A stretch of DNA of 64,000 nt from an uncultured archaeon (GCA_964442255.1 CAYTYC010000003.1:7423-71422), one strand, 5' to 3'. Positions 4,386 through 35,159 are shown, counted from the first letter of the stretch. Notes: generated by a model not told the origin, from the sequence alone. Numbers and translations: made by a program.

Positions 4386-4913
4386 ATGAAAGGCGCAAGA
4401 AAAATCAAGGGCTTTGTGAGAAGGGCGCGGGCAAAAATTGAAAGGCCTGAAGCCGCTTTAAGGGGGTTTAAGAGAACCTCCAATTCCCTTCAGCAGATTC
4501 CCTCAAGCACAATTCAGAGGCTAAAGAGCCTGGGCATTAAATTTGAAATTAAAACCACGCAGTCGGAAGACAAAAGGCATTTATTTCTTGAAATCCGCAG
4601 GGCCAAGCTTGCCCCTGAAATCAGCGAAGAACGAGCAAAAAAAGAGATTGGAGTGGCCCGAAAAAGGCAGAAACAGTTTTCAAAGGCGCTTGCCCGCCGC
4701 AACGAAATCAGGGAAATGGCGCGGGAAGCCGCAGCCAGGGGCTCCAAAAAATGGGTTGCAGTTGAAGCGGAAATCGAAGAAAGGGGCCCGCCTGCATTCA
4801 CAAACTTTGGGGAACTTGCAGAGCTCTTAGAGCGCGCCCTGATGGAGAAAAAGCAAAAAAAAGGACTGGGCACAGGGGCAAGCCCGCAAATAACGCCCCA
4901 AAAAAACACTTGA
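4386..4913 (+). CDS. hypothetical basic protein
   Basis: 175-aa ORF starting directly after the HAD gene stop. Confidence 0.55.
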   Translation: MKGARKIKGFVRRARAKIERPEAALRGFKRTSNSLQQIPSSTIQRLKSLGIKFEIKTTQSEDKRHLFLEIRRAKLAPEISEERAKKEIGVARKRQKQFSKALARRNEIREMAREAAARGSKKWVAVEAEIEERGPPAFTNFGELAELLERALMEKKQKKGLGTGASPQITPQKNT

Positions 4914-4969
4914 ACCTGTTCTTTGCCCTAAAATTCCCCTTAAAACGGTTTCTTTGCACCTATTTTTGT

Positions 4970-5740
4970 ATGCTTTTGATTGGAACATCCGGATACAGCT
5001 ACAACGACTGGGTGGGAAGGTTTTACCCCACGGACATAAGGAAAAACGCGATGTTCGATTACTACAGCAAACACTTTGACGTGGTTGAGCTGAATTTCTC
5101 CTATTTTCGGGTTCCCTCGCCTTACCAGTATTTGGGTGTTTTAAGGAAAGCCGGAAACACTGAATTTGTTGTTAAAGCGCATAAAAGCATGACCCATGAA
5201 AGGAAACGGGATCCAAGAATTTTCGATGAATTCAATATGAGTCTGACTCCGTTAAAGCAGAAAGACAAACTGTTGTGTGTTTTGGCACAGTTTCCTTCAT
5301 CCTTCCATTACTCGGAGGAAGGAATGAATTACTTAGAGTATTTGGTTAAAAAGCTGGAGTCGCCGATTGCAATGGAATTCAGGAACAAGGACTGGAACAG
5401 GAAAAATGTTTACGATTTTTTAAGTAAAAACAATGTAAGCTACTGCACGGTTGATTCGCCGAATATCGGTGACCTGATGCCGACGGTAGCCAAAGCAACA
5501 AGCGACTTGGGTTATGTGAGGCTGCATGGAAGGAACGGGGAAAAATGGTTTAACGCAAGGCAGGGATTTGAAAGATACGATTACTCCTATAACGAAAAGG
5601 AATTAAGGGAATTAATCCCGAAAATAAGGAAAATCGAGAAAAAAACCGAGAAAACCCTTGTATTGTTCAACAACCATTTCCAGGCAAAGGCCGCGCAAAA
5701 CGCGAAACAATTCAAGGAAATGGTTAAAGAAAAAAAATAG
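4970..5740 (+). CDS. DUF72/YecE family protein
   Basis: IGTSGYSYNDW, VELNFSY, QFPSSF, YVRLHGRN, YDYSY and FNNH motifs. Confidence 0.92.
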   Translation: MLLIGTSGYSYNDWVGRFYPTDIRKNAMFDYYSKHFDVVELNFSYFRVPSPYQYLGVLRKAGNTEFVVKAHKSMTHERKRDPRIFDEFNMSLTPLKQKDKLLCVLAQFPSSFHYSEEGMNYLEYLVKKLESPIAMEFRNKDWNRKNVYDFLSKNNVSYCTVDSPNIGDLMPTVAKATSDLGYVRLHGRNGEKWFNARQGFERYDYSYNEKELRELIPKIRKIEKKTEKTLVLFNNHFQAKAAQNAKQFKEMVKEKK

Positions 5741-5955
5741 CCCATGGTTTCCCCGCGGAAACCGAATTGGTTTGTGAAAAAGGAGACAATTAAAATAAGC
5801 AGGAAAATGCCTGGGGAAAACCATTTGGCGACCAAAATGGCTAAAAGCCTGCATGAATTCCTTCCCTTCCTGGTTTACGGAAACAATTTGCTTCCCTTTC
5901 ACGGGGAAATCGGGCTGGTTTCAGGGTTTGATAAAGGAAACTTAAGGCATGTAAG

Positions 5956-6760
5956 TTAAATTGATTCCCCTTTTCTGATTCTGTCAACAGTGCCTTTAAA
6001 ATCCTTCTCCAAAGCCCGGCCCAGCTTTTCAGGATCACGCATGGCATTCAAAGCCCGGCCCAGCTTTTCAGGACGCACCATGACATTCAAAGCCCGGCCC
6101 AGCTTTTCAGGACGCACCATGGCATTCAAAGCCCGGCCCAGCTTTTCAGGATGCACCATGACATCCAAAACCAAACCCAGCTTTTCAGGACGCACCATGA
6201 CATCCAAAACCAAACCCAGCTTTTCAGGATCACGCATGGCATTCAAAGCCAAACCCAGGCTTCCAGGATNNNNNNNNNNNNNNNNNNNNNNNNNNNNNNN
6301 NNNNNNNNNNNNNNNNNNNNNNNNNNNNNNNNNNNNNNNNNNNNNNNNNNNNNNNNNNNNNNNNNNNNNCATTCAAAGCCCGGCCCAGCTTTTCAGGACG
6401 CACCATGACATTCAAAGCCCGGCCCAGCTTTTCAGGATCACGCATGGCATTCAATACTGTGCCAGTCTTTTTGTCGCCAGTTGCTTCAAGGAACTTCAGA
6501 AAGGCGCTGCCAACACGCTTTTGTTTTACAACTTTTTCCACTTGCTGCAACATTCCTTTTTCCGAGAGAAGCCTTTGCATGGGCTGACCCAAATCCTTTT
6601 TTTCTGCTAAATAAACCAGTGCTCGCACTCGCGGTGGAAGCTCTGTCCGGTCATAAGCTTTAGTCCGATTCGCCAAGCGCCGTTTACTCTCTTGCTGTAA
6701 TCTCTCCGCTACCCTCTTAAACCCTCTTTTGGAAGGTTTTTGGCGTTTTGCAGGCGACAT
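5956..6760 (-). CDS. hypothetical protein with 13-aa tandem repeats, spanning an assembly gap
   Basis: ORF segments on both sides of the N-gap carry L(N/D)(A/V)M(RD/VR/VH)PEKLG(RA/LV) repeats. Confidence 0.7.
6011..6452. repeat. 39-nt coding tandem repeat
   Basis: Repeated aaagcccggcccagcttttcaggacgcaccatgacattc and variants. Confidence 0.9.
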
Positions 6761-6819
6761 TCAAACCAAAAGACAATTGCCGGAAAAAGCATAAAAACCT
6801 TTTGCCTTAAAAAAAGCAG

Positions 6820-7782
6820 CGCATTATCCCGAATTAATGTCTTTCGTGAAAATAGGCTTTTCTGGCCTATTGAAGTCACAAAGAAGCTGAACCAGAAGAA
6901 GATGCAATGGATCGTGAAAGAAGCCAAAATAAGGGAATTAAGTACGGGGCAGATAGCAAAGCCGCAGGGCATAACAGCAAGGCATGCAAGGCGTGTCTTT
7001 GCAAAATACCGGATGAAAAAAAGCCAAGGCTGCTGCGCTGCGGAAGAAAGCCAAAGCCAATGACGCAGCAGGAGACTGATGCCGTGCCCGGCATCAGAAA
7101 TAAGCATCCCTTTGGAGCGGTAAACCTGCAGCTTATGCTTGCAGAAAAAGATATTCATATTCCGCATAATCACGTCCACAAAATACTGAAGCAGCACTGC
7201 ACTGCAAAAGACGAGCCAAAAAAGCAGAAGCGCAGGAAATGAATAAGGTGTGAGCGCAAGCATTCAAACAGCCTTTGGCACATTGATTACAGCGAGCGTG
7301 ACGGAAAATGTGTTCTAGGGCCCCTGGATGACGCTTCACGCATGATTGCAGGACATGGATTATTTGACAATGCGACAGCCGGGAATGCCGTTGCAGTTCT
7401 GGATGAAGCGGTGAAGCAGCGCGGAACTCCCGGACAGCCCTTATCTGACAATGGATCGCAGTTTGCATCCATCACCAGGAAAGACTGCCCTGACCACAAT
7501 CTTTTCCGGAAAAAGCCTGATGCGCCTGGCATTGGGCACATCAAGGCACGCGTCAACCACCCGCAGACAAACGGCAAACCCGAATGCTGGTTTCTCACAA
7601 TGAAAAGACTCGTTGATCACTTCGGCGACCTGCAGCAGGCAGTAGATTATTGCAACAACAGGCGCCCCCACATGAGCCTCAACAACGGCTCATTATGCAC
7701 GCCTGCACAGGCTTTTTCAGAAAAACTTAAAGGGTGAATTGCACGGAAATAACTAAAGCGGACAATAAATCGGGACAACACA
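6820..7782 (+). mobile_element. degenerate IS481-family insertion sequence (~963 bp)
   Basis: Imperfect terminal inverted repeats: left CGCATTATCCCGAATTAATGTC, right GACAATAAATCGGGACAACACA; encloses an rve-type transposase remnant. Confidence 0.85.
6902..7737 (+). pseudogene. IS481-family transposase pseudogene
   Basis: LWHID, DDASR, SDNGSQF, HPQTNGK and NNRRPH motifs; frameshift at the A-run near 7016-7022 and TGA at 7240-7242 in place of Trp. Confidence 0.88.
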
Positions 7783-7861
7783 GGAACAAAAAAAGAAGAA
7801 AAAAAATAAAAATCAGTTTTTCAGCATCCTCCGCATCCCGGCCCCATGGTTTTTCACCTCC

Positions 7862-8452
7862 TCAGGTCCTGATAACAATATCCGAATACTTTTTTGTTGG
7901 GGCAATGTGCTTTAAATACATTGGCTGGACTGAAGATTTCCACATTTCCTGCACTGTTTCCTTTTTGTAATCCCTTTCCTTTATGTCGCGTTTTATTCTT
8001 CGCTGCAGGCGCTTTTTTTCGCTGCACTCCAAAAAAACCTTTAAGCCATACAGGGGAACAAGTTTTTTGTTCAGCGCATGAATTCCTTCCACGACAAGAA
8101 TTTTTGCGGGCGCAAAGTCCTCTGCGCCAATGCGAGCGCATTTCCTGAAGCTGTAAACCGGCTTCAAAACTTTTTTCCCTTTTTTCAGCGCCCGGAGATG
8201 GAATTTTGCGAGGGAAATGTCCATTATCCCCGGCGCGTCCCAATTGTTGTTTTTCACGAACTTTTTGCCCTTAAAGTAGTCGTCCAATGGAATGGTTTTT
8301 TCGCCAAGTTTTTTTGCAAGAAAAGTTTTTCCCGCACCAGAGCCTCCGTCTATTCCAACCAAAAAAAAGCCCTCCTTTTTTTTGAAGGCTGAAATTCTTT
8401 TCTTCAGCTCCGCAAGCCCCTCTTTTTCGTCGAATGACTTCATCCAAAGCAT
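7862..8452 (-). CDS. udk: uridine kinase family P-loop kinase
   Basis: IDGGSGAGKT, LDDYF, VEGIHAL, RRIKRDIKER and HIAPTKKYSD motifs. Confidence 0.85.
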   Translation of the reverse strand: MLWMKSFDEKEGLAELKKRISAFKKKEGFFLVGIDGGSGAGKTFLAKKLGEKTIPLDDYFKGKKFVKNNNWDAPGIMDISLAKFHLRALKKGKKVLKPVYSFRKCARIGAEDFAPAKILVVEGIHALNKKLVPLYGLKVFLECSEKKRLQRRIKRDIKERDYKKETVQEMWKSSVQPMYLKHIAPTKKYSDIVIRT

Positions 8453-8505
8453 TTAAACTGAAAGGCTATTTAATTAAATTGCTGTAAAAAAAATCTTAGA
8501 TAACC

Positions 8506-9512
8506 ATGAAAAAAGCCAAATTCCGGGGGGAATTCACGAGATCCGGACGTAAAGCATATGAAAGGCCGGGGGTCAGGAAAGCGGAAACGACTTCGCGCTG
8601 GAACCGGGAAGCTGACACCCTTCTTGTCCAAAAAGTCGGGGAACTGCTGAGTCAGGGAAAGCCTACTCCAATGGAAACAAAGGTTTATTTAAGCGGAAAA
8701 CTTTCAAAAAGCATTGCTGCAATTGAAAGAAGGCTGGCTTGTTCAGAAATTGCGGGAGTGTCTTTGAAATGCTTGCGCTGGTGGATAATATTCATCCGGG
8801 GGGCGGAAAAAAAGGGATAACAATCATGAAACTTCAAAACAGGCCTCCACAACAAAGGTCTTTGGCAGCCCCAGGAAAACACTGGACACACGCAATGGGG
8901 TTAAAGCTTGCAAAAACTGTCTGGAACAGGCATTGGAGCAAAGGGAAAAAAACCTCTTCAGAAACAGTCATGGGCCTGGCCAGAACTTTTTCTAAAACTC
9001 CAGGGGCTATTCGCATGCAACTTAGAAAATTCCAGGACTGCGGAAGCTTGGCGGCCATGATTTCAAGGGCGGACAAACTTTATCCAAAAGAAGTTCCCCC
9101 ACGGGCTGCAGGAAAAGGCGCCGAAATAGAAGGCAGGCCCAAGGCAAAAAAACAAAAACAGGTTACCGGCGTGGTGACCGGAAAGGGGCTGGTTGTTAGT
9201 TTCAGGTTTAAAGGCAGTTTGGTGGCAGTTAAAAGGCGCTGGAAAGGCGGGAAAGCATCAAAAATTGAAGTTGATGGAAAACCAATGATAAATGTTGCAT
9301 GGCTGATAAAAGCCGGCGGAAAAAAACAACAAGGACTTGGAAACAAAGTGACCGACGTGATGGCCGCCAACGGAATTCACAGCAAAGCAATTCCTTTTCC
9401 CGGCGAACCCCCTAAAAACGCGAAAAAGTTTGTCGCAGAAGCAGATGCCAAAAAAATTACCCGCATAATAGAAATGCAAAGGGAAAAATATGGTGGAAGG
9501 GGCCGAAAGTGA
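8506..9512 (+). pseudogene. frameshifted gene with two Myb/HTH-like repeats
   Basis: ORFs 8506-8820 and 8739-9512 join into an internally duplicated protein if one base is restored near 8738. Confidence 0.6.
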
Positions 9513-11050
9513 AGCAAAAAGAAAAATTTGATTTGGTGGTGACAGGGTCGGGGCTGGCTGGGCTGACCGCGGCATATTACGCAAGCAAGAACAGGAACAA
9601 AAGCATTGCTGTTTTAACCAAACTGGAGAAGCCGAATTTCAGCTCCTATTTTGCGCAGGGCGGAATAGCTGTATCGCTGGGAAAAAAGGATTCGGCTGAA
9701 AAGCATTTCCGGGACACGGTGAAGGCTGGCTGCGGATTAAACAACAGGCAGGCAGTAAGTGTTTTGGTCAGGGAGGGAAGGAAAAGGGTTAAGGAGTTAA
9801 TGGGGCTGGGGCTGGAGTTTGATTCCAACGGGAAAGGAAAGCCTGTTTTCGGAAGGGAAGGCGCGCACTCGCTGAACAGGGTTCTCCACATTGGCGGGGA
9901 CTCAACCGGGAGAGGGCTGAGCAAGTTTGTTGCGGGGCTTGTGAAAGAAAGGAAAAACGTGCACTTTTTCCGTAAACACTTTTTATTGGAATTGGCTGTG
10001 AAAGGAAACCGCTGTCACGGTGCTTTCGCGCAAAGCCCCATGGGAGTGAAGTTTTTTGAATCAAATGCTGTTGTTCTTGCGGCAGGGGGCTTTGCTTCCC
10101 TTTACTCGAAAACAACCAACCCCGCGGGAACCGTGGGTCAGGGCATTACCGCGGCACACAGGGCCGGCGCTGAACTCATGGACCTGGAGTTCGTGCAGTT
10201 CCATCCCACGACCTACCCGACAAAGGGCGAAAGGAATTTTCTGCTTTCCGAGGCAATGCGGGGGGAAGGCGCAAAAATCGTGAACGGAAAAGGGGAAAGG
10301 TTTTTGGGCAGAATTGATTCCCGGGAGGAACTGGCGCCAAGGGATATTGTAAGCAAAGCAATTCATTTGGAGATTCAAAAAGGGGAAAAAGTTTTTTTGG
10401 ACTGCACGCATTTGGGAAAAGAGTTTTTGAGGAAAAGGTTTCCCACAATCTACCGGAGAACAAAAGAGCACGGAACGGATTTAAGCAAAAAGCCCGTGGA
10501 AATAGGGCCCGCCGCGCACTTCACAATGGGGGGAGTGAAAACGGGTTTGGATTCCTTAAGCAGCGTAAGCAGGCTTTACGCGTGCGGGGAATGCTCGTGC
10601 AACGGCGTGCACGGCGCGAACCGCTTAGCCTCCAATTCACTGCTTGACGCGGTTGTGTTCGGCGCAAGGGCAGGGGAAAATGCGGTGAAAGAAAGGAAAG
10701 CCAACGGCCTTTCGCCGGAAAAAGTCCCCGAAGCAGGGGAAAGCGAAAAAAACGAGGAAAAAAAAGAGGTAAAAGAAATTTTATGGAGCTGTTGCGGGAT
10801 TGTGAGAAACAGGGGAGGGCTGCTGAAGGGACTGAATGAATTGAAGAAAATGGAGTTAAAGGCGGGAAAGAAAAGGCTTTCCTTTTTCCCGAGGCTGAAA
10901 AGCGAAATCGAATTGGGGAAGCTGGTGCTGGGCTCCGCGCTTGCACGGGAGGAAAGCAGGGGCGCGCATTTCAGGGAAGATTTCCCGAAAAAACGCGCGG
11001 AATGGAGAAATCACTCGGTTTTAAAAGGGAGTTTGGGGGCAAAATCTTAA
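9509..11050 (+). CDS. nadB: L-aspartate oxidase
   Basis: GSGLAG, AQGGIA, EGAHS, QFHPT, HGANRLASNSL and EESRGAH motifs; next to nadA. Confidence 0.95.
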   Translation: MKQKEKFDLVVTGSGLAGLTAAYYASKNRNKSIAVLTKLEKPNFSSYFAQGGIAVSLGKKDSAEKHFRDTVKAGCGLNNRQAVSVLVREGRKRVKELMGLGLEFDSNGKGKPVFGREGAHSLNRVLHIGGDSTGRGLSKFVAGLVKERKNVHFFRKHFLLELAVKGNRCHGAFAQSPMGVKFFESNAVVLAAGGFASLYSKTTNPAGTVGQGITAAHRAGAELMDLEFVQFHPTTYPTKGERNFLLSEAMRGEGAKIVNGKGERFLGRIDSREELAPRDIVSKAIHLEIQKGEKVFLDCTHLGKEFLRKRFPTIYRRTKEHGTDLSKKPVEIGPAAHFTMGGVKTGLDSLSSVSRLYACGECSCNGVHGANRLASNSLLDAVVFGARAGENAVKERKANGLSPEKVPEAGESEKNEEKKEVKEILWSCCGIVRNRGGLLKGLNELKKMELKAGKKRLSFFPRLKSEIELGKLVLGSALAREESRGAHFREDFPKKRAEWRNHSVLKGSLGAKS

Positions 11051-11051
11051 A

Positions 11052-11969
11052 ATGCCTTTAAGCGAAGTGCAGGAAAAAATCCTGCGGCTGAAAAAGGAAA
11101 AAAACGCGTTAATCCTTGCGCACAACTACCAGGGCAGGGAAGTGCAGGAAATCGCGGACTTTGCCGGGGACAGCCTGGAGCTGGCGAAAAAGGCGCGGGA
11201 TTTTAAGGAAAAAATTGTGGTGTTCTGCGGGGTTGACTTCATGGCGGAAACCACGAAAATTTTGAGCCCGGAAAAAAAGGTTTTAATGCCTTCCCCGGGC
11301 GCAAAATGCCCGCTCGCAAAGCAGTTGAGCGCAGAGCAGCTGAAGGAAGCGCAGGAAAGGTTTCCGGAAGCGAAAACCGTTTTATACGTTAATTCAGGCG
11401 CGGAAACAAAGGCGCTTGCGGATTCCTGTTGCACTTCCGCAAACGCGGAAAAAATAGTTAACGCAATGGATTCTGAAACAGTTTTGTTCGGCCCGGACCA
11501 CAACCTCGCTTATTACGTGCAGAAAAGGAGCGGAAAAAAAATTGTTCCTGTTCCGGAGGACGGAATCTGCCCCACGCACCACTTCATTTCCGAAGACGAG
11601 GTTTTAGAGCAGAAACGGCTGCATCCCAAAGCAAAGATAATTGCGCACCCTGAATGCGTTCCGGAAGTGCAGGCGGAAGCGGACTTCATTGCCTCAACCT
11701 CGGGAATGGTTAAAATTGCGAAGGAAAACCCTGCAGCGGAATTCATTGTCGCGACAGAGAAAAACATGCTCATAAGGCTGGAGAGGGAAGCTCCTGGAAA
11801 AACTTTTTATCCCGCTTCAGGGCATGCAATTTGCCCCACCATGCGGATGATCACAATTGAAAAGGTTTTGGAGTCGCTGGAAGAAGAGAAGTTTGAAGTG
11901 GAAGTGGACGGAAAGATTTCAGGGAAAGCAAGAAAAGCAATTGAGAAAATGTTTGAATTGACCGTTTGA
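11052..11969 (+). CDS. nadA: quinolinate synthase
   Basis: LAHNYQ, FCGVDFMAE, YVNS, CTSANA and AHPEC motifs. Confidence 0.96.
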   Translation: MPLSEVQEKILRLKKEKNALILAHNYQGREVQEIADFAGDSLELAKKARDFKEKIVVFCGVDFMAETTKILSPEKKVLMPSPGAKCPLAKQLSAEQLKEAQERFPEAKTVLYVNSGAETKALADSCCTSANAEKIVNAMDSETVLFGPDHNLAYYVQKRSGKKIVPVPEDGICPTHHFISEDEVLEQKRLHPKAKIIAHPECVPEVQAEADFIASTSGMVKIAKENPAAEFIVATEKNMLIRLEREAPGKTFYPASGHAICPTMRMITIEKVLESLEEEKFEVEVDGKISGKARKAIEKMFELTV

Positions 11970-12003
11970 TTTAAAGCCCTTTCCGAACCTGAATCCTTTT
12001 TTA

Positions 12004-13077
12004 ATGAAAAAAGGTTTTCCTGCTCGGCTGATTCTTGAGGACGGCACTGTTTTTTCCGGCAAAAGCTTTGGGTTTAATTCCTCCAGCGCAGGGGAAGCAG
12101 TATTCAACACAGGGATGGTCGGCTACCCTGAAAGTTTAACTGACCCTTCCTACTGCGGGCAGATTCTTGTTTTCACGTATCCGCTGATTGGAAACTACGG
12201 GGTTCCGGGAAAGAAAAAAGAGTTTGGGTTAAGCAAGTTTTTTGAATCGGAAAGAATTCAGGTGAAAGGGCTTGTGGTTGCGGATTATTCACAGGAATGG
12301 AGCCACTGGAATTCGGAAAAAAGTTTGGGGGACTGGCTGAAGGAAGAAAAAGTTCCCGCAATAAGCGGAGTGGACACACGGGCTCTGACCAAAAGGCTGC
12401 GGGAAAAAGGCACAATGCTTGGAAAAATTGTTTTGGGAAAAGATGTGGAATTTTTTGACCCGAATAAAGTTAATTTGGTGCAGGAAGTAAGCGGAAAAAA
12501 AGTTTTGGAGCATGGAAAGGGAAGGAAAAAAATTGCCGTGGTGGACTGCGGTGTTAAGAACAATATCATCAGGAGTTTGGTGAACCGGAAAGTGAAGGTT
12601 TACAGGGTTCCATGGAACTGTGATTTGGTGAAAAGCGGGCTGGATTTTGACGGGGTTGTTTTAAGCAACGGCCCGGGAAACCCAAAGCAATGCAGGGAAA
12701 CGATTGAGAACGTAAAGAAACTGCTTAAGGAAGAAATTCCAATTTTTGGAATCTGCTTGGGAAACCAGATTCTTGCATTGGCTGCAGGCGCGAACACATT
12801 TAAATTGAAATACGGGCACCGCGGGCAGAACCAGCCATGCGAAGAGCTGGACAGCGGAAAGTGCTTTATTACAGCGCAAAACCATGGTTACGCGATTAAA
12901 GGAAGCTCCATGGGGAGGGGCTGGGGGGAATGGTTCAAAAACCTGAATGACGGCACAAACGAAGGCATAAAGCACAGGGTAAAGCCCTTTTACTCCGTGC
13001 AATTCCACCCTGAATTTAATCCAGGGCCTACAGATACGGGTTTCCTGTTTGATAAGTTTTTGAGGGAGGTGAAATAG
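12004..13077 (+). CDS. carA: carbamoyl-phosphate synthase small subunit
   Basis: FNTGMVGYPESLTDPSY, SNGPGNP, GICLGNQ and QFHPE motifs. Confidence 0.96.
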   Translation: MKKGFPARLILEDGTVFSGKSFGFNSSSAGEAVFNTGMVGYPESLTDPSYCGQILVFTYPLIGNYGVPGKKKEFGLSKFFESERIQVKGLVVADYSQEWSHWNSEKSLGDWLKEEKVPAISGVDTRALTKRLREKGTMLGKIVLGKDVEFFDPNKVNLVQEVSGKKVLEHGKGRKKIAVVDCGVKNNIIRSLVNRKVKVYRVPWNCDLVKSGLDFDGVVLSNGPGNPKQCRETIENVKKLLKEEIPIFGICLGNQILALAAGANTFKLKYGHRGQNQPCEELDSGKCFITAQNHGYAIKGSSMGRGWGEWFKNLNDGTNEGIKHRVKPFYSVQFHPEFNPGPTDTGFLFDKFLREVK

Positions 13078-13080
13078 CTT

Positions 13081-16000
13081 GTGGCAAGGAAAGTACTGCT
13101 TTTAGGAAGCTCTGCCCTGAAAATCGGGGAAGCAGGTGAAAGTTCTTTAAAGTCCTGAAAAGGGCTTAAGGGCCGCCTATTCGACTACTCCGGTTCCCAG
13201 GCAATCAAAGCGCTCAAGGAAGAGGGAATTAAAGTTGTGGTGGTGAACCCGAACATTGCGACAGTGCAGACATCCAAAGGCCTTGCGGACAAGGTGTACT
13301 TTCTTCCAGTGAACGGTTTCTTTGTTGAAAAGGTCATCAAAAAAGAAAAGCCAAACGGAATTCTCCTCGGTTTTGGGGGGCAGACCGCATTGAACTGCGG
13401 GCTGGAGTTATGGAAAAAAGGAATACTAAAGAAATACAAGGTAAGGGTTTACGGAACACCGGTTGAGTCAATCAAAAAAACAGAGGACCGGGAACTGTTC
13501 AAAAAAGAGCTGGAAAAAATCGGGGTAAAGGTTCCGAGTAGTGTTGCGGCCAAGAGCGTTGGAAAGGCGCTGGGCGCAGGAAGGAAATTGGGGTTTCCCT
13601 TAATTTTAAGGAGCGGCTTTTCTTTGGGCGGGCAGGGCTCGGGAATTGTGTGGAATGAACCGCAGCTTAAAGAAAAGGCAAGGCTTGCGTTAAGTTCTGC
13701 TCACCAGATTTTGATTGAAGAGTATCTGAAGGGCTGGAAGGAAATAGAGTACGAGGTTGTAAGGGACAAAAAAGGAAATTGTGTAACCGTCTGCAACATG
13801 GAAAACGTTGACCCCATGGGCGTCCACACCGGCGAAAGCATTGTGGTTGCGCCCTCGCAAACCCTGAGCAATGCGGAGTATCACCTGCTCAGGGAAATTT
13901 CCATTAAGGTTGTGAAGCATCTGCGCATAGTCGGGGAATGCAATGTGCAGTTTGCGTTAAACCCAAAGTCATTGGAGTACCGGGTAATTGAGGTAAACGC
14001 GAGGCTTAGCCGGAGCTCGGCGCTTGCATCCAAGGCAACAGGCTATCCTTTGGCGTTCATTGCAGCAAAGCTTGCGCTCGGGAAAACCCTGAATGAATTA
14101 AGGAATTCCATCACCAAAAAAACTTCCGCGTTCTTTGAGCCCTCGCTTGATTACGTTGTGGTAAAGATTCCAAAATGGGATTTGCAGAAATTCAGGAAGG
14201 TTTCATTCGAGATTGGAAGCGAAATGAAAAGCGTTGGGGAAGTGATGGCAATCGGCAGAAGCTTTGAGGAAGCACTGCAAAAAGGAATCCGGATGCTTGG
14301 AAACGGCTTGAATGGATTGACAGGAAACAGGCTTGAGCTGGAAAACGGGCCGGAGAAAGGGATCAAAACCCCGAACGACAAAAGGCTTTTTTACATCGGG
14401 AAGGCGCTGGAAAAGGGGAAAAGCGTGGAAAAAATCCATAAAATGAGTTTCATTGACAAATGGTTTTTGTTCAAAATGAAAAACATTGTGGAAACAGCGA
14501 AAAAGTTAAGAAAGGAAAAAATTGAGAGAAGTTTGTTAAGGAAAGCAAAAGAACAGGGGTTCAGCGACAAACAAATTGGGGCATTGGCCGGATGGGAAGA
14601 GGAAAGGGTAAGGGAAAAAAGGAAAAAGCTTGGAATTGTTCCGGTTGTGAAGCAGATTGACACCCTGTCGGCAGAATTTCCGGCTAAAACAAATTACCTT
14701 TATTCAACTTACAATGGCTCAGAAGATGATGTAGGGAGGGTGGGAAAGAAAACGGCAATGGTTCTCGGCTCCGGGGCGTACAGCATTGGCTCAAGCGTGG
14801 AATTTGACTGGTGCTGCGTTAATGCAGTGAAAACAGCCAGGCGTTTAGGGTATAAGACAGTGATGGTGAACTTCAACCCTGAAACAGTTTCCACTGATTT
14901 CGATGAATGCGATTCCCTGTACTTTGAGGAATTAAGCATGGAAAGGGTCAGGGACATTTACGGGAAAGAGCGGCCCATCGGAATAATCCTTTCGGTTGGC
15001 GGGCAGATTCCGAACACTTTGGCGGTTGAATGCAAAAAGCACGGGCTAAGGGTTTTGGGGACTTCCGCGGAAGACATTGACAGGGCTGAGGACAGGCACA
15101 AATTCAGCGCGCTTCTGGATAAGCTGGGGGTTGACCAGCCGGAATGGGTTGAGGCACGGAATCTGAAGGAGGCGCTGGAATTCAGTGAAAAAGTCGGCTA
15201 CCCTGTTTTGGTGCGGCCATCCTATGTGCTGAGCGGAAGCGCAATGAACATTGCATTCAATTCACGGAACCTTAAAAGCTATCTGAAAAAAGCGACTTCA
15301 CTGAGCAGGGAGCGCCCTGTTGTTGTGTCAAAATTCATTGAAGGCGCAAAGGAAATAGAGATTGACGCGGTGGCTGAAAAAGGAAAAATGCTTTTGTGGG
15401 CAATCACTGAGCACGTGGAAAATGCGGGCGTGCATTCGGGGGACGCGACAATGGTTTTGCCTGCGCAAAAGCTTTACATTGAAACAATGCGAAGGGTGAA
15501 GGAGATTTCAAGGGAAGTCTCAGCAGCACTGCACATAAACGGCCCCTTCAACATCCAGTTCATTGCGAAAAGCAATGAAATCAAGGTAATTGAATGCAAT
15601 TTGCGTTCTTCCAGAAGCTTTCCTTTTGTTTCAAAGGTTTTTGGGGTTAACTTCATTGAATTTGCAACAAAGGCAATGCTCGGGGAAAAAGTGAAGGAGC
15701 CAGGCAAAAGCGTTTTGGAGCATGACTGTGTGGGGGTGAAGGCGCCGCAGTTCTCCTTCTCAAGGCTGAAGGGAGCGGACCCGGTGCTTGGGGTGGAAAT
15801 GGCGTCAACCGGGGAAGTTGGGTGCCTTGGTTCTGGCTTGAATGACGCTTTCCTGAAATCCATTATTTCAACGGGGTTCTCGCTTCCGAAAAAAAAAGTG
15901 CTTTTAAGCATCGGGGGCGAGGAAAACAGGTACGAACTTCTCCCCGCAATACGGAAACTAAAAGAAAAGGGCTTTGAATTGTTTGCCACACAGCACACCT

Positions 16001-16296
16001 CGCTTTTCCTAAAGGAACAGGGAATTGAAAACACCCTGGTTTTCAAGCTGCATGAACTGAAAAAGCCGAACGCAAGGGAACTGATTGAAAAACGGGGGGC
16101 GGAGCTTGTGGTGTGCGTGCAGGACAAGTTTTACCAGGAAGCCATTGAAGACGAGTACCTGCTCAGGAGGCTTGCCGTGGATTACGGGATTCCGTTAATT
16201 ACGAACAGGCAGCTCGCTAAGCTGTTCATCAACGCGGTTTTGGAGAAAAAGCAGGGGCAGCTGGAAATCAAAAGCTGGAATGAATACATAAGCTGA
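13081..16296 (+). CDS. carB: carbamoyl-phosphate synthase large subunit, join(13081-13140,13180-16296), 1058 aa after intron removal
   Basis: SD GGAGGTGA at 13065-13072 and GTG start. Exon 1 MARKVLLLGSSALKIGEAGE joins exon 2 FDYSGSQAIKALKEEG, restoring the conserved CarB N-terminus. Two ATP-grasp domains and an MGS domain follow. Confidence 0.93.
13141..13179 (+). other. putative bulge-helix-bulge intron in carB mRNA (39 nt)
   Basis: Central helix GGUG/CGCC, bulges AA|A and UA|U, internal stem with a GAAA tetraloop, in-frame UGA. Confidence 0.88.
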
Positions 16297-16351
16297 GGCA
16301 AGATAATCCTTTTTTAAATCTTTCATGTTTTAATCCTAAAAAGGTGCGAAA

Positions 16352-18346
16352 ATGGAAATGCTTTTTTACGGAATGATTGCCGCGTTGGTGGCGCTGGTTT
16401 TCGCGTTCCTTCTGAAATGGGGCATTGACAGGAAGCCGGCGGGAAACGAAAAAATGCGGGAGATAGCGAAAAACATTTCAGACGGGGCAATGGTTTTCCT
16501 TATGCGGGAATACAAGTACCTGTTTGTGTATGTCGTGGTTGTAGCAATTGTATTGTATTTGATTAATTTCGCGGTTCCATTGAACGCGATTCTCACCGCT
16601 GTTTCATTCATCCTTGGGGCGGTTGTTTCCGCGCTTGCCGGACTGATTGGAATGAAGACCGCAACCAAGGCGAATGTAAGGACAGCGGAGGCCGCAAGGA
16701 AAGGCATTACGGAAGCGTTAAAGGTTGCGTTCAGTTCCGGCGCAGTAATGGGCTTAAGCGTCGTGGGGTTGGGGCTTTTTGGAATCAGTTTGCTTTCATA
16801 TGTTTTCATTTATTCTTTTGGGTTTGCCGACCCCACTTCCCTTATTTTTGGCTTCAGTTTCGGGGCTTCCAGCATTGCATTGTTTGCGAGGGTTGGGGGC
16901 GGAATTTACACAAAGGCTGCGGACGTTGGCGCTGACTTGGTTGGAAAGGTTGAGGCAGGCATTCCTGAAGATGACCCAAGAAATCCTGCAGTTATTGCGG
17001 ACAATGTCGGGGACAATGTGGGGGACGTTGCGGGAATGGGCGCTGACCTGTTTGAAAGCTATGTTGGAAGCATTATTGCGGCAATGGCTTTGGGCTTCAT
17101 TGCGTTAGGCGCAATTGGGCTTAACATTCCAATCCTTATTGCGGGGGTTGGAATAATTTCTTCCCTGATTGGAATCGCATTTGTGAATCTGGGAAAAGGC
17201 GAAAACGCGAGGGTTGCAATGCGGAACGGAACCATTCTTGCGGCGGCGTTAATGGTTATTGGGGCATATTTTTTGGTTGTGGACTTTTTGGGCGCTTCGC
17301 TGGGAATTTTTCTGGCCGTATTGGTTGGGGTGGTTTCCGGAATCCTTATCGGCTATCTCACTGAATACTTCACTTCATACGATTATTATCCCACAAAACA
17401 GGTCGCAAAAGCGTCTGAAACAGGGTCAGCAACAAACATTCTTGCGGGAATCAGCCTCGGAAACCAAAGCACTGCCTTGCCTATTTTCGTGATTGCTGTC
17501 GCGATTTTCCTTGCATACCATTTCGGGGGATTGTTTGGGATTGCGCTTGCGGGGGTTGGAATGCTGAGCACTCTGGGAATTACTTTGGCTGTTGACGCTT
17601 ACGGCCCGGTTGCGGATAACGCAGGCGGAATAACTGAAATGTCAAAACTTGGGAAAGAGGTGAGGGAAAGGACAGACGCACTGGATTCGGTTGGAAACAC
17701 TACCGCTGCAATGGGAAAAGGCTTTGCGATTGGCTCGGCCGCCTTAACCGCGCTTGCATTGTTTGCCACTTACACAGTTATTGCCGGGATTGAAATAGTC
17801 AATTTAATTGAGCCAAAAGTTATTGCGGGACTGCTTTTAGGCGCAATGCTCCCATTCTTATTCAGTTCATTCGCAATCCAGGCCGTTGGAAAGGCGGCAG
17901 GTGAAATGATTGAAGAAGTGAGAAGGCAGTGGAAGGAAATCCCGGGGTTAATGCAGGGAAAAGCCGAAGCAGACTATAAAAGGTGCGTGGACATCAGCAC
18001 CAATGCCGCGATCAAAAGGATGATTGCGCCCGCATTGCTTGCGATTCTTTCGCCTATTGCCCTTGGCCTGGTTTTGGGCCCGGAAGCGGTTGCCGGGCTT
18101 TTGGCAGGTGCGCTGGTTAGCGGGGTGGCGCTGGCGATAATGATGGCAAATTCGGGGGGAGCGTGGGACAACGCAAAAAAGTATATTGAAAAAGGTTTTT
18201 TGGGCGGAAAAGGTTCCCCGGCGCACAAGGCGGCGGTTGTTGGAGATACTGTAGGGGATCCCATGAAGGACACTTCAGGGCCCTCAATCAACATCCTGAT
18301 AAAATTGATGTCAATTGTGGCAGTGATCTTTGCAGCATTATTTTAG
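16352..18346 (+). CDS. hppA: membrane ion-translocating pyrophosphatase, K+-dependent and probably Na+-pumping
   Basis: GGGIYTKAADVGADLVGK, DNVGDNVGD, GNTTAA (K+-dependent signature), DLFESY and GDTVGDPMKD motifs. Confidence 0.95.
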   Translation: MEMLFYGMIAALVALVFAFLLKWGIDRKPAGNEKMREIAKNISDGAMVFLMREYKYLFVYVVVVAIVLYLINFAVPLNAILTAVSFILGAVVSALAGLIGMKTATKANVRTAEAARKGITEALKVAFSSGAVMGLSVVGLGLFGISLLSYVFIYSFGFADPTSLIFGFSFGASSIALFARVGGGIYTKAADVGADLVGKVEAGIPEDDPRNPAVIADNVGDNVGDVAGMGADLFESYVGSIIAAMALGFIALGAIGLNIPILIAGVGIISSLIGIAFVNLGKGENARVAMRNGTILAAALMVIGAYFLVVDFLGASLGIFLAVLVGVVSGILIGYLTEYFTSYDYYPTKQVAKASETGSATNILAGISLGNQSTALPIFVIAVAIFLAYHFGGLFGIALAGVGMLSTLGITLAVDAYGPVADNAGGITEMSKLGKEVRERTDALDSVGNTTAAMGKGFAIGSAALTALALFATYTVIAGIEIVNLIEPKVIAGLLLGAMLPFLFSSFAIQAVGKAAGEMIEEVRRQWKEIPGLMQGKAEADYKRCVDISTNAAIKRMIAPALLAILSPIALGLVLGPEAVAGLLAGALVSGVALAIMMANSGGAWDNAKKYIEKGFLGGKGSPAHKAAVVGDTVGDPMKDTSGPSINILIKLMSIVAVIFAALF

Positions 18347-18401
18347 GGGCGTTGGTTCTTAGGCAATCCGCCTTTGAAAGCAAAATAAATAAAAACTTAA
18401 T

Positions 18402-18485
18402 TTGAAAGATTCATTAGGGCTAAGGTTTAATATCCCGATTAAGTTGATGAGCATTGTTGCGCTGGTTTTTGCGGCGCTGTTTTAA
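18402..18485 (+). pseudogene. divergent duplicate of the last 27 codons and stop of hppA
   Basis: Translates LKDSLGLRFNIPIKLMSIVALVFAALF* versus hppA MKDTSGPSINILIKLMSIVAVIFAALF*. Confidence 0.85.
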
Positions 18486-18923
18486 TTATTCTTTCACTGA
18501 AGAAAAAGACGCGCAGGAAAGGGTTGCGGAAACGCCTTCAATTGCGCGGATTTTTTCAATGACAAGCTCCCCAATTTCCTTCAGGTCTTTTGCGCGAACC
18601 TTCACAAGGATGTCCCATTCGCCGGAAATCATGTGAACTTCAAAAACAGGGGAAAGCTTTGCGATTTTTTGCGCAACCGTTTTCTGCGGAATTTCTTTTA
18701 GCGGGGCATACTTTACCAAAATAAATGCTGTGGCGGGTTTTCCAAGTTTTGCGTAATCCGGCTGGACAGTGTATTTTTGTATTAACTTTTCTTTCTCCAT
18801 TTTCTTTAACCTGTCGAAAACCGTTGTGCGCGGAAGCCTGGTTTTGCGGGCAATTTCCTTTATAGAGGCGCGGGAGTTTTTTTCCAGCTCCTCCAAAATC
18901 TGAAAGTCCTTTGAATCAGCCAT
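18486..18923 (-). CDS. Lrp/AsnC family transcriptional regulator
   Basis: DxKDFQILEELEKNSRAS HTH start and VHMISGEWDILVKV effector domain. Confidence 0.93.
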   Translation of the reverse strand: MADSKDFQILEELEKNSRASIKEIARKTRLPRTTVFDRLKKMEKEKLIQKYTVQPDYAKLGKPATAFILVKYAPLKEIPQKTVAQKIAKLSPVFEVHMISGEWDILVKVRAKDLKEIGELVIEKIRAIEGVSATLSCASFSSVKE

Positions 18924-18930
18924 GCATTAA

Positions 18931-18989
18931 TTATCCGGAAAAACTATTAAAAACCATCACTTTTACGGATTTTATCCGGATTATCCGTC
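18931..18989. promoter_or_regulatory. repeated TTATCCG motifs in the divergent lrp/tRNA-Asn promoter
   Basis: TTATCCGGA at 18931 and 18972, TTATCCGTC at 18981, inverted ACGGAT at 18965. Confidence 0.5.
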
Positions 18990-19026
18990 AAAAGTATTAA
19001 ATTTCAAGGAAGGGGAAGTATTTGAG

Positions 19027-19358
19027 AGGCGGGTAGTCCAATTGGCCAGGATGCCGGGCTGTTGAAATCAGAACCTGCGGTTCCGTAGAAGGCGGGGGAT
19101 TTTTTGCTCAAGCTTTTTTTGAAAANNNNNNNNNNTTGCATGCGGTCCGGTAGACTTTGCCCGCCAGGCCGATTTCCTCCACCCGGCCGATTCGGACGCC
19201 GCGAAACTTAAAGGATGAACCCACTTCCAGACCTTGAACGGAATCTTCAAAATAGGTTTCGATCATGGCTGTTTTTTGAAAAAGCTTGCCCGATGCCTCC
19301 CTTAAGTTTCAGGGAATACAGTAACCCGGTGATGGGAGTTCGAGTCTCTCCCCGCCAG
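19027..19358 (+). tRNA. tRNA-Asn(GUU) with a long anticodon-loop intron (~259 nt including a 10-N gap)
   Basis: 5' half AGGCGGG-TA-GTCC..GGAT-G-CCGGG-CTGTT; 3' half CCCGG-TGAT-GGGAG-TTCGAGT-CTCTC-CCCGCCA-G; the stems pair across the gap. Confidence 0.85.
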
Positions 19359-19359
19359 T

Positions 19360-19941
19360 TTAGTGACCACTGCCGGATTCTTTCCTGAATCCGGCAACAA
19401 CCCACTTCAATTTTTTTCGGTGTTTTACGCCCAAATATATCCCGTAATAAGGAACTGTCATAAGGGCTGCCTGCCCTTGCGCCAGTTTTTTGATTGCCCA
19501 CCGGCCATATTTTTTTCTCAAAGCCAGGGCGCCGGTTGCCCCAAGCACTGCGCCAATTGCAATTTCAGGGTTATCGGCAATCCTTGCAGCCATCCTGTCC
19601 AGGGTGGGGTTATTAAGATTTACAATCCACGTATTAACGTGTTGCACGCCGGCTCCAAGAGTTTTACCGATAATCTTTCCTTCAAGCGGCAGTAATGCGT
19701 ATTTGTTCCACATCTCCACAGGCCAAGCGGCTACTTTCACTCCTACTTGGGCTGCTTCGGGAAGCTTAGCCATCCCTTTAGTAAGCCCGGCTTCTGCAAG
19801 CTCAGCCAGACGAACGGCTTTAAATCCTGCCATTGACCCGGCCAGTGCCCCAACAGAACCAGCTGTAACCTTACCAGTCAGGCGTTTTTTGAGGTCAGTT
19901 CCAACTCCCCCCGCCTTTTTAGGTGATTTATGCCCCGCCAT
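19360..19941 (-). CDS. hypothetical protein with hydrophobic segments
   Basis: SD GGAGGG before ATG 19941; convergent with tRNA-Asn. Confidence 0.6.
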
Positions 19942-20121
19942 GAAGTATCCCTCCTGAGAAAACATGGCACTAAGTCCTTAATATGCTTTTTTCTTGACAG
20001 GAAATGTGCCCCTCCAAAAGGATTTAAAAACATCCAGCCTTCTATCTTTTTGGCTTTAGGGAAAAAGGCTTCAGTCTGCCCGGATTGGGGCCTGAATGCC
20101 CTTGAAAGCGGAGGTGAAAGA

Positions 20122-21078
20122 GTGGGCGAAAAAACGCTTAAAATCAAGACAATTGAGGATTTGCCTGGAATTGGCAGCGGGGCAGCCGAAAAGCTTCGCG
20201 CGGCAGGCTACAGGGAACTGGAAAACATTGCGACTGCTTCTCCCATGGAATTAAATGAAATAGCCGGTTTGGGCGACGGCACGGCCGCAAAAGCCGTGAA
20301 AGCCGCAAGGGAAGCAATGGACATGGGATTTGAACCCGCGGACCTGCTTGCGGAAAGAAGAAAAACACTGGGAAGGCTTACAACAGGCTCAAAGGAACTC
20401 GATGAATTGCTTGGCGGGGGAATTGAAACGCAAAGCATAACCGAATGCTACGGAAAATTTGCCTCGGGAAAAACCCAGGTGTGCTTTCAGGTTGCGGTCA
20501 CAAGCCAGCTTCCGCCAGATAAGGGGGGTTTGGGGGGAAACGTGATGTACATTGACTCCGAAAACTCGTTCAGGCCGGAAAGGATTACGGCAATAGCGGA
20601 GCACCACGGTCTGGACCCCTCAAAGGTTTTGAAGAACATTTTTGTTGCGCGCGCATACAACGCCGACCACCAGATGCTTTTGGCGGAGAAAGCGGCAGAA
20701 ATGCTTAAAGAAAAGAAAATAAAACTGGTCATAGTGGATTCCCTTACCTCCCTTTTCAGGACAGAGTACCTGGGAAGGGGAAAGCTTGCGGACAGGCAGC
20801 AGCAGCTGGGAAAGCACATGAGGGTTTTAATGAAGATGGCTGAAATGAATAATATCGCAGTATTGGTGACAAACCAGGTGATGCAGAGGCCCGACATTTT
20901 GTTCGGAGACCCCACTGCACCCATTGGGGGAGAAATTGTGGCGCACAGCAGCAAAACCCGGCTATACTTGAGGAAAAGCAAAGAAGACAAGAGGGTTGCA
21001 AAGCTTGTGGACTCGCCTTCCCTTCCGGACGGGGAAGCATTGTTCAGGGTGACAACAAACGGGCTGGAGGACGTTTGA
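20122..21078 (+). CDS. radA: DNA repair and recombination protein RadA
   Basis: HhH IEDLPGIG, Walker [22 protein letters not shown] and VTNQV; SD GGAGGTGA before GTG 20122. Confidence 0.96.
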
Positions 21079-21087
21079 ATGCGTCCT

Positions 21088-22686
21088 TTAGCCTAACAGG
21101 AACCGGGAGGCAAGAATGAAAACAGCTATAAGCACACCCACAAAACCTTCCCCCCCAATAAGGCCTGCCGCCATCAGCCTGCCTTTCTCCGTGAATTTTC
21201 TCCGGTCAGCAAACAAACGGATTAACCCCCCAAGGAACAGGGGAAAAGAGAGCTCAACCGGAACGTAAACGCCTATCCCAAACGCAACAGGAAGGATTCC
21301 AAGGCGGAGAAAGGTTGTGATAAGGGTCAGGGTAAACCCAAGGACCGCGCCGACTGCAAGCATGGTTTCAAGCGTTTCCGCCCCCGCGATTTCGCCTATC
21401 GCAACCGCCTGAGGGGCAGGCAGCTCAATCCCACCGATTCCGTAAACCGTGTTAAGGGAAACAAGCACAAGGCCCAAAACAAGGGAGGCGGCAATTACTC
21501 CCGTGAACTGCGCAATTAACTGGTGGCGGGGATTTGTGCGGAGCAAAAAGCCTGCTTTCAGGTCCTGCATGAAGTCCCCCGCAATTCCCGCGGCAATGCA
21601 AACAACGGCTGCAAGGATTATCAGGAAAATTGCGTTGAATCCCAGGAAAATTTTAGCCGCGATAAGGACAATCATCGCAAAGATTTCCATCGGGTCAACG
21701 TTCATTTCACCGGTTACACGGGCGCCAACATAAGCCATCAGGAACGCGCCGAGTATTGCGATAACTGAAAGGGCAAGGTTCATTTCAGTTATTATTGTGA
21801 GGAGGGCGACAAGGACTATTACGGCCAGGCCAAAAAAACGGTTGAAGCCGGCCTTTTCTTTCCTGAAGCCACGGAACATTTTCGCGAAAGCCGGGATTCC
21901 CTTCAGCAAAAAGTATGCGATTGCCGCCCCTATAACAATTCCAATCCCCAATGGTTTGGTGAATTGCACCATTGCGAGGGCCTTTTCCCCAAAAATGCCT
22001 GCGGAAACAAGGTAAGGAATCAGGAGAAAATAGCTTGCGATTGCGCCCAAAAACCATGCGCCGGTAAAGCGCGGGCCAATAAGGTAGCCTCCCGCCAGAG
22101 AAACCAAGGAAATGCCTGCGCCAAAGGAAAAAAGCTTTGCGGCCTGCAGTTTTAGGAGGTCAATGTTCCAGAAATGGGGGATAAGCTCGAGGTAGTCACG
22201 GAGGAAGCTGAAAACCGCCCCGACCCCAAACATCGCCATTACGGTTTTTATTTTTTTCCCGCCTTCATCGCCTGCCATGATTATTGCCGCTGCGGCTGTT
22301 CCATCCGGGTAAGGGAGCTGTTCCCTTTCAATCATCTCTTTGCGCAAAGGAACGCTGAAAATTATTCCCGCAATTCCGCCAACCAAGGAAATAAACATTA
22401 TTTCCGGCACTGAAATGTCAAATCCCAGCACCCAGATTGCAGGAATAGTGAAAATTATTCCCGCCGCAAGAAGTCCGCCCGCACTGGCGGCGGTTTGGGC
22501 GACATTTATTTCGTTGTTGTTAGTGTTCCGCAAAAGGGTAAGCAAAGCCATTGCAAGAATTGAGGTAGTTATGATGGGCCAGTAAACTCCCCCAATCTTC
22601 AGGCCCAAAAAAGCGGAATACATTGAAACGATTATGGAAAGCATTGCGCCGACAAAAAGCGCGCGGAAAGTAAGGGATGAAGGCAT
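21088..22686 (-). CDS. OPT/YSL family oligopeptide transporter
   Basis: LPYPDGTA, FMQDLKAGFLL and LPAPQA motifs; many TM segments. Confidence 0.9.
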   Translation of the reverse strand: MPSSLTFRALFVGAMLSIIVSMYSAFLGLKIGGVYWPIITTSILAMALLTLLRNTNNNEINVAQTAASAGGLLAAGIIFTIPAIWVLGFDISVPEIMFISLVGGIAGIIFSVPLRKEMIEREQLPYPDGTAAAAIIMAGDEGGKKIKTVMAMFGVGAVFSFLRDYLELIPHFWNIDLLKLQAAKLFSFGAGISLVSLAGGYLIGPRFTGAWFLGAIASYFLLIPYLVSAGIFGEKALAMVQFTKPLGIGIVIGAAIAYFLLKGIPAFAKMFRGFRKEKAGFNRFFGLAVIVLVALLTIITEMNLALSVIAILGAFLMAYVGARVTGEMNVDPMEIFAMIVLIAAKIFLGFNAIFLIILAAVVCIAAGIAGDFMQDLKAGFLLRTNPRHQLIAQFTGVIAASLVLGLVLVSLNTVYGIGGIELPAPQAVAIGEIAGAETLETMLAVGAVLGFTLTLITTFLRLGILPVAFGIGVYVPVELSFPLFLGGLIRLFADRRKFTEKGRLMAAGLIGGEGFVGVLIAVFILASRFLLG

Positions 22687-22756
22687 TTCAGGGAACTATG
22701 CGGAAAAGGTAATAAAAAGCTAAAGGTAAAAAAAAAAGTGTGGCAACATTTTTTTT

Positions 22757-23302
22757 TTAGATTGTCTTCAAAAGGTCGGATTTTGTTATTAAGCCCACAA
22801 GCCTTCCTTTTTCCTGCACAAGGAGGAGGGAATAATATGAAAGCATGTCCGCCATAACCTTTAGGGGGGTTTCCTTTGAGATTAAAGGAAAGGCTTCGCC
22901 CATTACTTTCCTGGTTTCTATGGCTTTAAGCAAAACATCCTCGGAAAGCTTTTGGCTCAAAATCCTGTCAGAAATGCTTCCCACACAAATCCCTGAGTCA
23001 ATCACCGGAAGCTGGGAAATGTTTTTTCGGTTCATGAGCTGGACTGCTTTCCTTACTTTTTCATTGCTTGAAACCGAAAAAATTTTTTTGGCCATAATGT
23101 CTGCCGCCTTCACCGATTCCTTCTGATCAAGGGAGGAAAGGACGGAAAAGACTTCCTTCACCTTGCTGTAGGAAACATCCACCTTGCCTGACTCAAGCTT
23201 TGCGAGAAGGGACTGGGACAATCCCGACTGGCGGGCAAGCTGGGACTGGGTCAGGCCGAACTGCTTCCTTTTCTGGCGGATTTCCTTTGCTTCCGGAAAC
23301 AT
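22757..23302 (-). CDS. Cro/C1 HTH plus CBS-pair transcriptional regulator
   Basis: GLTQSQLARQSGLSQS HTH followed by two CBS domains. Confidence 0.92.
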   Translation of the reverse strand: MFPEAKEIRQKRKQFGLTQSQLARQSGLSQSLLAKLESGKVDVSYSKVKEVFSVLSSLDQKESVKAADIMAKKIFSVSSNEKVRKAVQLMNRKNISQLPVIDSGICVGSISDRILSQKLSEDVLLKAIETRKVMGEAFPLISKETPLKVMADMLSYYSLLLVQEKGRLVGLITKSDLLKTI

Positions 23303-34816: not shown

Positions 34817-34867
34817 ATTTTTCCGGAAATGTTACCTTTAAAAACCGCTTTGGACACAATTTTTTTG

Positions 34868-35108: not shown

Positions 35109-35159
35109 CATTTGCGTTTCACTTTGAAGCGTGCCCGCGCTTTTGTTCAGGGGGATTAA

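Follow-up and report, generated by a model that had tools for sequence, protein, structure and literature searches.

A predicted bulge-helix-bulge intron within the carB coding sequence of an uncultured archaeon and its relatives

Introduction

Splicing of the bulge-helix-bulge (BHB) intron of the cbf5 message in Crenarchaeota, the system of Watanabe 2002 and Yoshinari 2006, has reportedly been shown experimentally. Pairs made up of a free-standing endonuclease and a protective insert also occur in phages, namely F-CphI of cyanophage with the psbA intron and MobA of T4 with the gene 60 insert. Here we describe a 39-nt insert in carB, a gene for carbamoyl-phosphate synthase, found in a 64,000-nt stretch of DNA from an uncultured archaeon (GCA_964442255.1, CAYTYC010000003.1:7423-71422). 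The whole stretch is referred to as the window, positions are counted from its first letter, and all features of the carA-carB locus given below lie on the + strand. The insert (13141-13179) is in all likelihood an archaeal BHB, or tRNA-type, intron within the coding sequence.

Passages of Schwarz et al. 2020 (PMC7714728) name cbf5 as the only archaeal coding sequence reported with a BHB intron, together with one intron in a 5' untranslated region (UTR). Our full-text literature searches found nothing on carB introns; nor did the literature searched contain the Micrarchaeota mRNA intron cases which a preliminary description of this locus, made from the sequence alone, had mentioned as putative. 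In Haloferax volcanii HVO_1309 the splicing endonuclease likewise acts, as far as the same passages go, on a BHB intron of an mRNA. That intron sits in the untranslated 5' leader and has been confirmed both in vivo and in vitro, whereas the carB intron breaks a reading frame and is predicted. In geometry, cut rule and presumed enzymes the carB insert resembles the BHB introns of archaeal pre-tRNAs, those of this genome among them. It differs from them in that its helix partner is coding sequence, so that the same nucleotides would be constrained by both the protein code and RNA structure.

Results

An interrupted carB gene

The carB gene can be read from a GTG start at 13081 through 20 codons, the 39-nt insert, and a frame which then stays open until 16296. 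Exon 1 (13081-13140; GTG plus 19 codons, translated as V/MARKVLLLGSSALKIGEAGE) is preceded by a Shine-Dalgarno-like sequence, GGAGGTGA, at 13065-13072, 8 nt upstream of the GTG, and its peptide is kept in all 18 intron-bearing genomes described below. The insert contains an in-frame TGA (13156-13158) and occurs once in the genome. Exon 2 (13180-16296; 1038 codons plus stop) begins directly 3' of the insert and its translation from 13180 onward is FDYSGSQAIKAL. The preliminary description had placed the Shine-Dalgarno sequence, GTG, insert and TGA at these positions, and direct reading and translation agree with it to the base.

The insert interrupts the GE-FDYSG motif of CarB (the hyphen marks the point of insertion here and below), which runs unbroken through GE-FD in intronless relatives. 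Exon 1 residues 3-20 align with positions 3-20 of the Pfam domain CPSase_L_D1 (E 0.042, alone below the cut-off) and exon 2 residues 1-100 with positions 21-118 (E 3.3e-34). The exon join is therefore seamless, position 20 abutting position 21, and removal of 13141-13179 restores the motif as had been claimed. The same domain is matched as one piece, positions 3-117, in an intronless relative. The gene has the complete expected Pfam domain set (CPSase_L_D1/D2/D3, ATP-grasp, MGS). Because the insert with its TGA breaks the frame, the open reading frame (ORF) listing begins carB at 13237 and gives a 1019-aa product. An identical product, sourced from NCBI, is found in the public protein collection, which bears out the earlier remark that ORF callers hide the intron by starting at this position.

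Predicted fold and cleavage sites

The minimum free energy (MFE) fold of 13115-13200 has -30.7 kcal/mol (z -2.52; 2 of 200 shuffles equally good). It contains a central 4-bp helix between GGUG in exon 1 (13135-13138) and CGCC in the intron (13174-13177), which is paired in 72 of 72 cells across 18 sequences. On the 5' side lies an AAA bulge (13139-13141), unpaired in both the MFE and RNAalifold structures and AAA in 18/18 sequences. On the 3' side lies, in the canonical register, a UAU bulge (13178-13180). The intron forms an inner hairpin (13142-13173) of 6+7 = 13 bp with a GAAA loop (-12.0 kcal/mol; 5/6 proximal pairs covary), and an imperfect outer exon-exon helix pairs 13122-13134 with 13181-13195 in both structures (87-89% of cells paired), the synonymous sites of its 3' strand being fixed in intron-bearing alleles. 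The fold given in the preliminary description is recovered in its GGUG/CGCC helix, AAA bulge, 13-bp GAAA stem and imperfect outer helix. Its 3-nt UAU bulge stands only in the canonical 4-bp register, as the MFE fold adds an A13134-U13178 pair and leaves 13179-13182 as a loop.

EndA, the splicing endonuclease, cleaves each bulge behind its second nucleotide, a rule that places the predicted cuts after 13140 and after 13179. These are the boundaries set by protein homology, a coincidence which the earlier prediction had pointed out and which our analysis upholds. On three contigs of this genome, scanned in one fixed register, a fraction of 6.0e-4 of all combinations of position and length offered a 4-bp helix with two 3-nt bulges and an inner helix of 4 bp, more than which the carB site did not have to show to qualify. 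Under a stricter filter it dropped out on account of two G-U pairs in its inner helix.

We propose that the carA-carB transcript folds in this way, that EndA would cleave at the two sites, and that the ligase RtcB would join the exons to give ...IGEAGE-FDYSG..., a full-length CarB of 1058 residues with the junction peptide IGEAGEFDYSGSQAIK. The 39-nt intron would be freed, probably as a circle. The unspliced mRNA, by contrast, would yield a peptide of only 25 residues.

Recurrence and covariation in the order

Our survey took in 196 species genomes of the same order, 133 of which gave no carB match. Of the 63 with carB, 62 could be scored (in G069 the gene stops at a contig edge). An insert occupies the identical bond after GE in 18 of the 62, and the other 44 genes are uninterrupted; presence and absence differ inside 7 genera. 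A class-level survey added one carB, which is intronless. The inserts are 33, 34 (x6), 39 (x4), 40 (x4), 41 and 42 (x2) nt long. None can be translated through, as 11 shift the frame and all 7 in-frame ones hold stops. Downstream, 17 of the 18 interrupted genes have 1007-1118 open codons, while the remaining gene meets a contig end.

All 18 inserts have 4/4 central pairs (GGYG/CGYC), an AAA 5' bulge, an NAU or AGU 3' bulge, and a hairpin with 4-6 terminal inner pairs. In the alignment of these sequences (A1), 90.9% of cells are paired, compared with 25-46% when partners are slid. Double changes in the inner helix number 41 cells against 14.7 +/- 3.4 in shuffles, none of 500 shuffles reaching 41, and 5/6 inner pairs show compensatory change. 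RNAalifold arrived de novo at the same structure, with 11/29 pairs compensatory.

The coding sequence around the junction was compared at synonymous sites between the 18 intron-bearing and 16 intronless alleles. Near-fixation is confined to the intron-bearing alleles and, within these, to sites that fall in the predicted helices; sites elsewhere vary in both sets. Position -4 is C in 17/18 intron-bearing alleles (1/16 intronless), +3 is C in 17/18 (4/16), +6 is C in 17/18 (3/16), +12 is C in 15/18 (3/16) and +15 is T in 16/18 (2/16). This pattern fits selection for RNA structure. Variation in exon 1 is nearly all at third-codon positions.

Wider occurrence and a search for further introns

Among metagenome contigs, a pattern built from alignment A1 found at least 120 more loci with an insert of 16-40 nt at the carB site. 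The matches listed include 59 distinct inserts, most of them 20-22 nt long. Of these, 41 shift the frame and all 18 in-frame ones hold stops; nearly all those listed form a small hairpin with compensatory differences. The very common 16-22-nt class, which dominates the matches listed (loci L149-L268), adjoins the peptide VLGSGAIKIGEAGE-FDYSGSQCLK. At 64 of the 120 loci listed the carA end lies within 150 nt upstream, leaving no intervening gene.

A scan of this and related genomes for BHB motifs at breaks in homology had been suggested earlier. The comparison by homology recovered the same-site inserts in the 18 genomes, but a scan starting from structure was uninformative. It returned 46,653 strict BHB motifs in the genome, and open-frame joins were as frequent in the correct register (4183) as with the 3' cut moved by +/-1 (4173 and 4201), unchanged under stricter helices, since motifs across ordinary gene boundaries swamp any signal. 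When ORFs from 400 kb of G023, roughly one third of its sequence, were searched by tblastn against the own genome, the only intron-like interruption was in carB, within the reach of a sample confined to that portion of G023 and to exons that are not very short. A candidate interruption near 27.1 kb (C8) was rejected as a repeat protein with an assembly gap. Separately, contig C9, outside the window, carries at about 34.6-35.2 kb an ABC-type ATPase with a single in-frame stop at the position where relatives have the Q of the LSGG..Q signature; the stop could reflect recoding, a sequencing error or decay to a pseudogene.

Splicing machinery and host

The host genome (1.28 Mb, 93.8% complete) encodes the enzymes that such an intron would need. 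EndA is a single 170-aa ORF on contig C19 with both domains (PF01974, 96.7 bits; PF02778, 35.8 bits), and RtcB is matched at 528.8 bits in a frame without stops. With introns allowed, ARAGORN made 40 tRNA calls in the genome, of which 21 bear introns of up to 195 nt; 9 of these 21 fit both the 4-bp helix seen at carB and the rule that cutting follows the second bulge nucleotide. The carB intron is very probably removed by EndA and RtcB, and carB would then depend physiologically on EndA. Taken together, recurrence in 18 of 62 genomes, covariation, exon constraint and the presence of EndA and RtcB are as expected at the sequence level for a BHB-spliced mRNA intron, and support that reading of the insert in the preliminary description.

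Within the window, Rfam places tRNAs at 49726-49833 (-), 52848-52940 (+), 48780-48832 (-) and 49923-49989 (-). Two of them are intron-bearing judging from their lengths of 108 and 93 nt, and ARAGORN with default settings called no tRNA in the whole window. An archaeal signal recognition particle (SRP) RNA at 34865-35140 (+; 150.5 bits) confirms the archaeal origin of the contig. The host is a small-genome archaeon that we describe as DPANN-like in view of its 1.28 Mb and of its agreement with the account of DPANN EndA in PMC5829648, the SRP RNA, EndA and RadA establishing only that it is an archaeon. The window also holds a tandem repeat at 6010-6454 (39-nt unit, 6.2 + 2.2 copies, 90% matches), which lies inside an ORF (5990-6610) without a Pfam match.

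A homing endonuclease beside the intron in relatives

Upstream of carB lies carA, which encodes the small subunit (12004-13077; ORF list; Pfam CPSase_sm_chain 1.8e-53, GATase 2e-52). Its TAG stop (13075-13077) stands 3 nt ahead of the carB start, and the gap between the two contains no gene here. Gaps between carA and carB were read directly in 17 intron-bearing relatives and at 16 intronless loci. An endonuclease gene or remnant lies directly upstream of exon 1 in 8/17 of the former and 0/16 of the latter, where the gaps contain TauE, NUDIX or an unknown ORF. Four genomes have an intact, free-standing LAGLIDADG_3 ORF of 413-460 aa between carA and carB (G020, L016:24-1376; G101, L270:194-1432; G102, L271:198-1439; G126, L276:295-1674), with 41-65% mutual identity, and C-terminal remnants precede exon 1 in G129, G033, G105 and G121. 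In these relatives the endonuclease gene is about 85 nt from the insert. The C-terminal end of the endonuclease is also present at five metagenome loci whose inserts belong to the 33-40-nt class. No endonuclease family was found among the ORFs of window positions 4910-23302, and the own genome has no close homologue of the relatives' endonuclease.

Identical introns can sit in divergent exons: G109 (L040) and G118 (L044) share a 40-nt intron within flanking 150 nt that are 86% identical, and G101 (L033) and G102 (L034) share a 34-nt intron with 90% identity in the flanking 150 nt of exon. This hints that intron and exon histories are not always shared. The nearest named matches to carB 13180-13779 are bacterial (Bacteroidales, Peregrinibacteria and Gracilibacteria; 60-67% identity, loci L048-L127), and archaeal carB relatives of the same order, at 61-69% identity, are no closer. 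The gene may be of bacterial type, in which case the intron was acquired after transfer. As a separate observation, LAGLIDADG_3 domains occur in 175/196 genomes of the order, with up to 27 per genome among the matches listed. The majority of those listed sit inside open frames 800-2300 aa long, a picture suggestive of a very high intein load.

Discussion

Weighing the evidence

Several points weigh against a BHB intron in carB. A search for RNA runs covering window positions 11000-17000 found none, and we infer cleavage, ligation and the intron circle from DNA sequence and the predicted fold. The 3' bulge is enlarged to 4-5 nt by the MFE and RNAalifold structures (5 nt unpaired in RNAalifold), and pairing in the outer helix is imperfect. 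Only 10/18 sequences form the pair between columns 24 and 75 that would close the 3' bulge, so that the 3' side comes nearer to a bulge-helix-loop. An alpha4 EndA is classically regarded as strict, and an enzyme of this type is suggested by the lone EndA gene; no gene for a second EndA subunit was found at E <= 1 in the 93.8%-complete genome. Parts of one study (PMC5829648) do report an alpha4 EndA with an extra loop from DPANN lineages having many disrupted tRNAs. The 18 sequences are kin, so the counts overstate their independence. The metagenome pattern required the helix and its flanks, so that only the length, stop and hairpin findings from those contigs are independent. The uniform exon flanks could in part be co-conversion tracts left by homing instead of a product of structural selection.

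We consider it very improbable that carB is a pseudogene or dying, with the insert merely inactivating it. An in-frame TGA inside an essential motif and the lack of a carB match in 133/196 genomes of the order would suit such a view, but the long open frames downstream in 17/18 genes, the domains all kept in the own carB and the near-confinement of exon 1 changes to third-codon positions speak for a gene in use, and random insertion would not hit one phosphodiester bond with covarying BHB geometry in 18 genomes. Equally improbable is a reading in which exon 1 is unused and translation of CarB starts at the internal GTG (13237), even though the ORF list and the public collection both hold the 1019-aa product. 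That product would be without CPSase_L_D1 (pre-ATP-grasp) positions 1-39, which include the conserved GEFDYSG. Exon 1, its start codon and its Shine-Dalgarno sequence are kept in all 18 genomes, and the frame-shifting inserts of relatives leave no conserved internal start.

Translational bypassing of the kind seen in phage T4 gene 60, with the ribosome hopping an insert in uncut RNA, has in its favour a short insert that begins with a hairpin and, in relatives, lies beside a free-standing homing-endonuclease gene, as that of gene 60 reportedly does. It is most unlikely all the same. Take-off would be at GAA, and the intron ends in CUA (here), CAA, CAG or CCA, none of which matches it as a landing codon; nor was a codon match found in the 17 relatives. 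The next codon after take-off is AGU, with no stop directly after. Moreover, what is conserved is the geometry for EndA, a 4-bp helix between 3-nt bulges, and exon 2 nucleotides are constrained for a pairing that bypass does not need. The chance of an assembly artefact, a translated hairpin repeat (REP- or MITE-like) or a self-splicing intron is practically negligible. Contigs from two DNA runs, one of them possibly the source, carry the insert identical base for base and no joined form was seen in them, which settles the artefact check proposed in the preliminary description in favour of a genuine insert. The 39-mer is single-copy, and a stop or frameshift in 18/18 inserts, as in the 59 distinct metagenome inserts listed, speaks against a translated repeat. 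Lengths of 33-42 nt are far below those of group I or II introns, whose core takes hundreds of nucleotides, and nothing in Rfam matches the site. An intron removed by the tRNA-splicing enzymes thus stays by far the preferred explanation of the insert.

Possible origin of the intron

Neither the endonuclease link in relatives nor the breadth of the intron's spread had been foreseen. The association suggests that the intron entered carB jointly with a free-standing LAGLIDADG endonuclease gene upstream of exon 1, and that in this genome the endonuclease gene would have been lost, leaving an orphan intron. Tentatively, and with somewhat less than an even chance of being right, we suggest a selfish two-part cassette, in which the LAGLIDADG enzyme cuts intronless carB at GE-FD and spreads with exon 1 and the BHB insert, the mini-intron being the surviving half. 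If so, the cassette would spread by gene conversion, and an insert spliced by the host would destroy the endonuclease's own target site. The endonuclease would then decay, as the remnants in G129, G033, G105 and G121 would illustrate, while orphan introns would stay because only their exact deletion is tolerated. The 16-22-nt metagenome inserts would be the minimised end state, and the cassette would offer a general route for tRNA-type introns into archaeal protein-coding genes. The endonuclease link makes the origin of the intron experimentally testable.

Comparison with known systems

The relatives' loci resemble the F-CphI and MobA systems in that an essential gene carries a short insert with a free-standing endonuclease gene nearby; the endonuclease gene or its remnant accompanies 8/17 intron-bearing loci against 0/16 intronless ones. 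They differ in that the carB insert is predicted to be removed by the host's tRNA-splicing enzymes and not by self-splicing or ribosome hopping; the endonuclease gene is, moreover, absent from this window.

The cbf5 pre-mRNA intron of Crenarchaeota, as far as passages of Yokobori 2009 (PMC2738675) describe it, is likewise a tRNA-type intron in coding sequence with presumed removal by EndA and a ligase, and likewise patchily distributed, lost in particular lineages and hidden from gene callers. The two differ in that splicing has been shown experimentally for cbf5 and is deduced from sequence for carB, and in that cbf5 is associated with a hetero-oligomeric EndA (going by the title of Yoshinari 2006), whereas one EndA gene is found here. 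The carB intron interrupts the gene of a metabolic enzyme, in a DPANN-like host and not in Crenarchaeota, varies within 7 genera and is tied in relatives to a free-standing homing endonuclease. If it is spliced, the message of a core metabolic enzyme, carbamoyl-phosphate synthase, would rely on tRNA-splicing enzymes. Standard gene callers systematically mis-annotate such genes, and the public collection holds the truncated product. The carB intron is a well-supported case of the same kind as the cbf5 intron in a second gene family. It is borne by 18/62 genomes in a single order and, in metagenomes, by at least 120 contigs, and splicing of archaeal mRNA would accordingly be no one-off.

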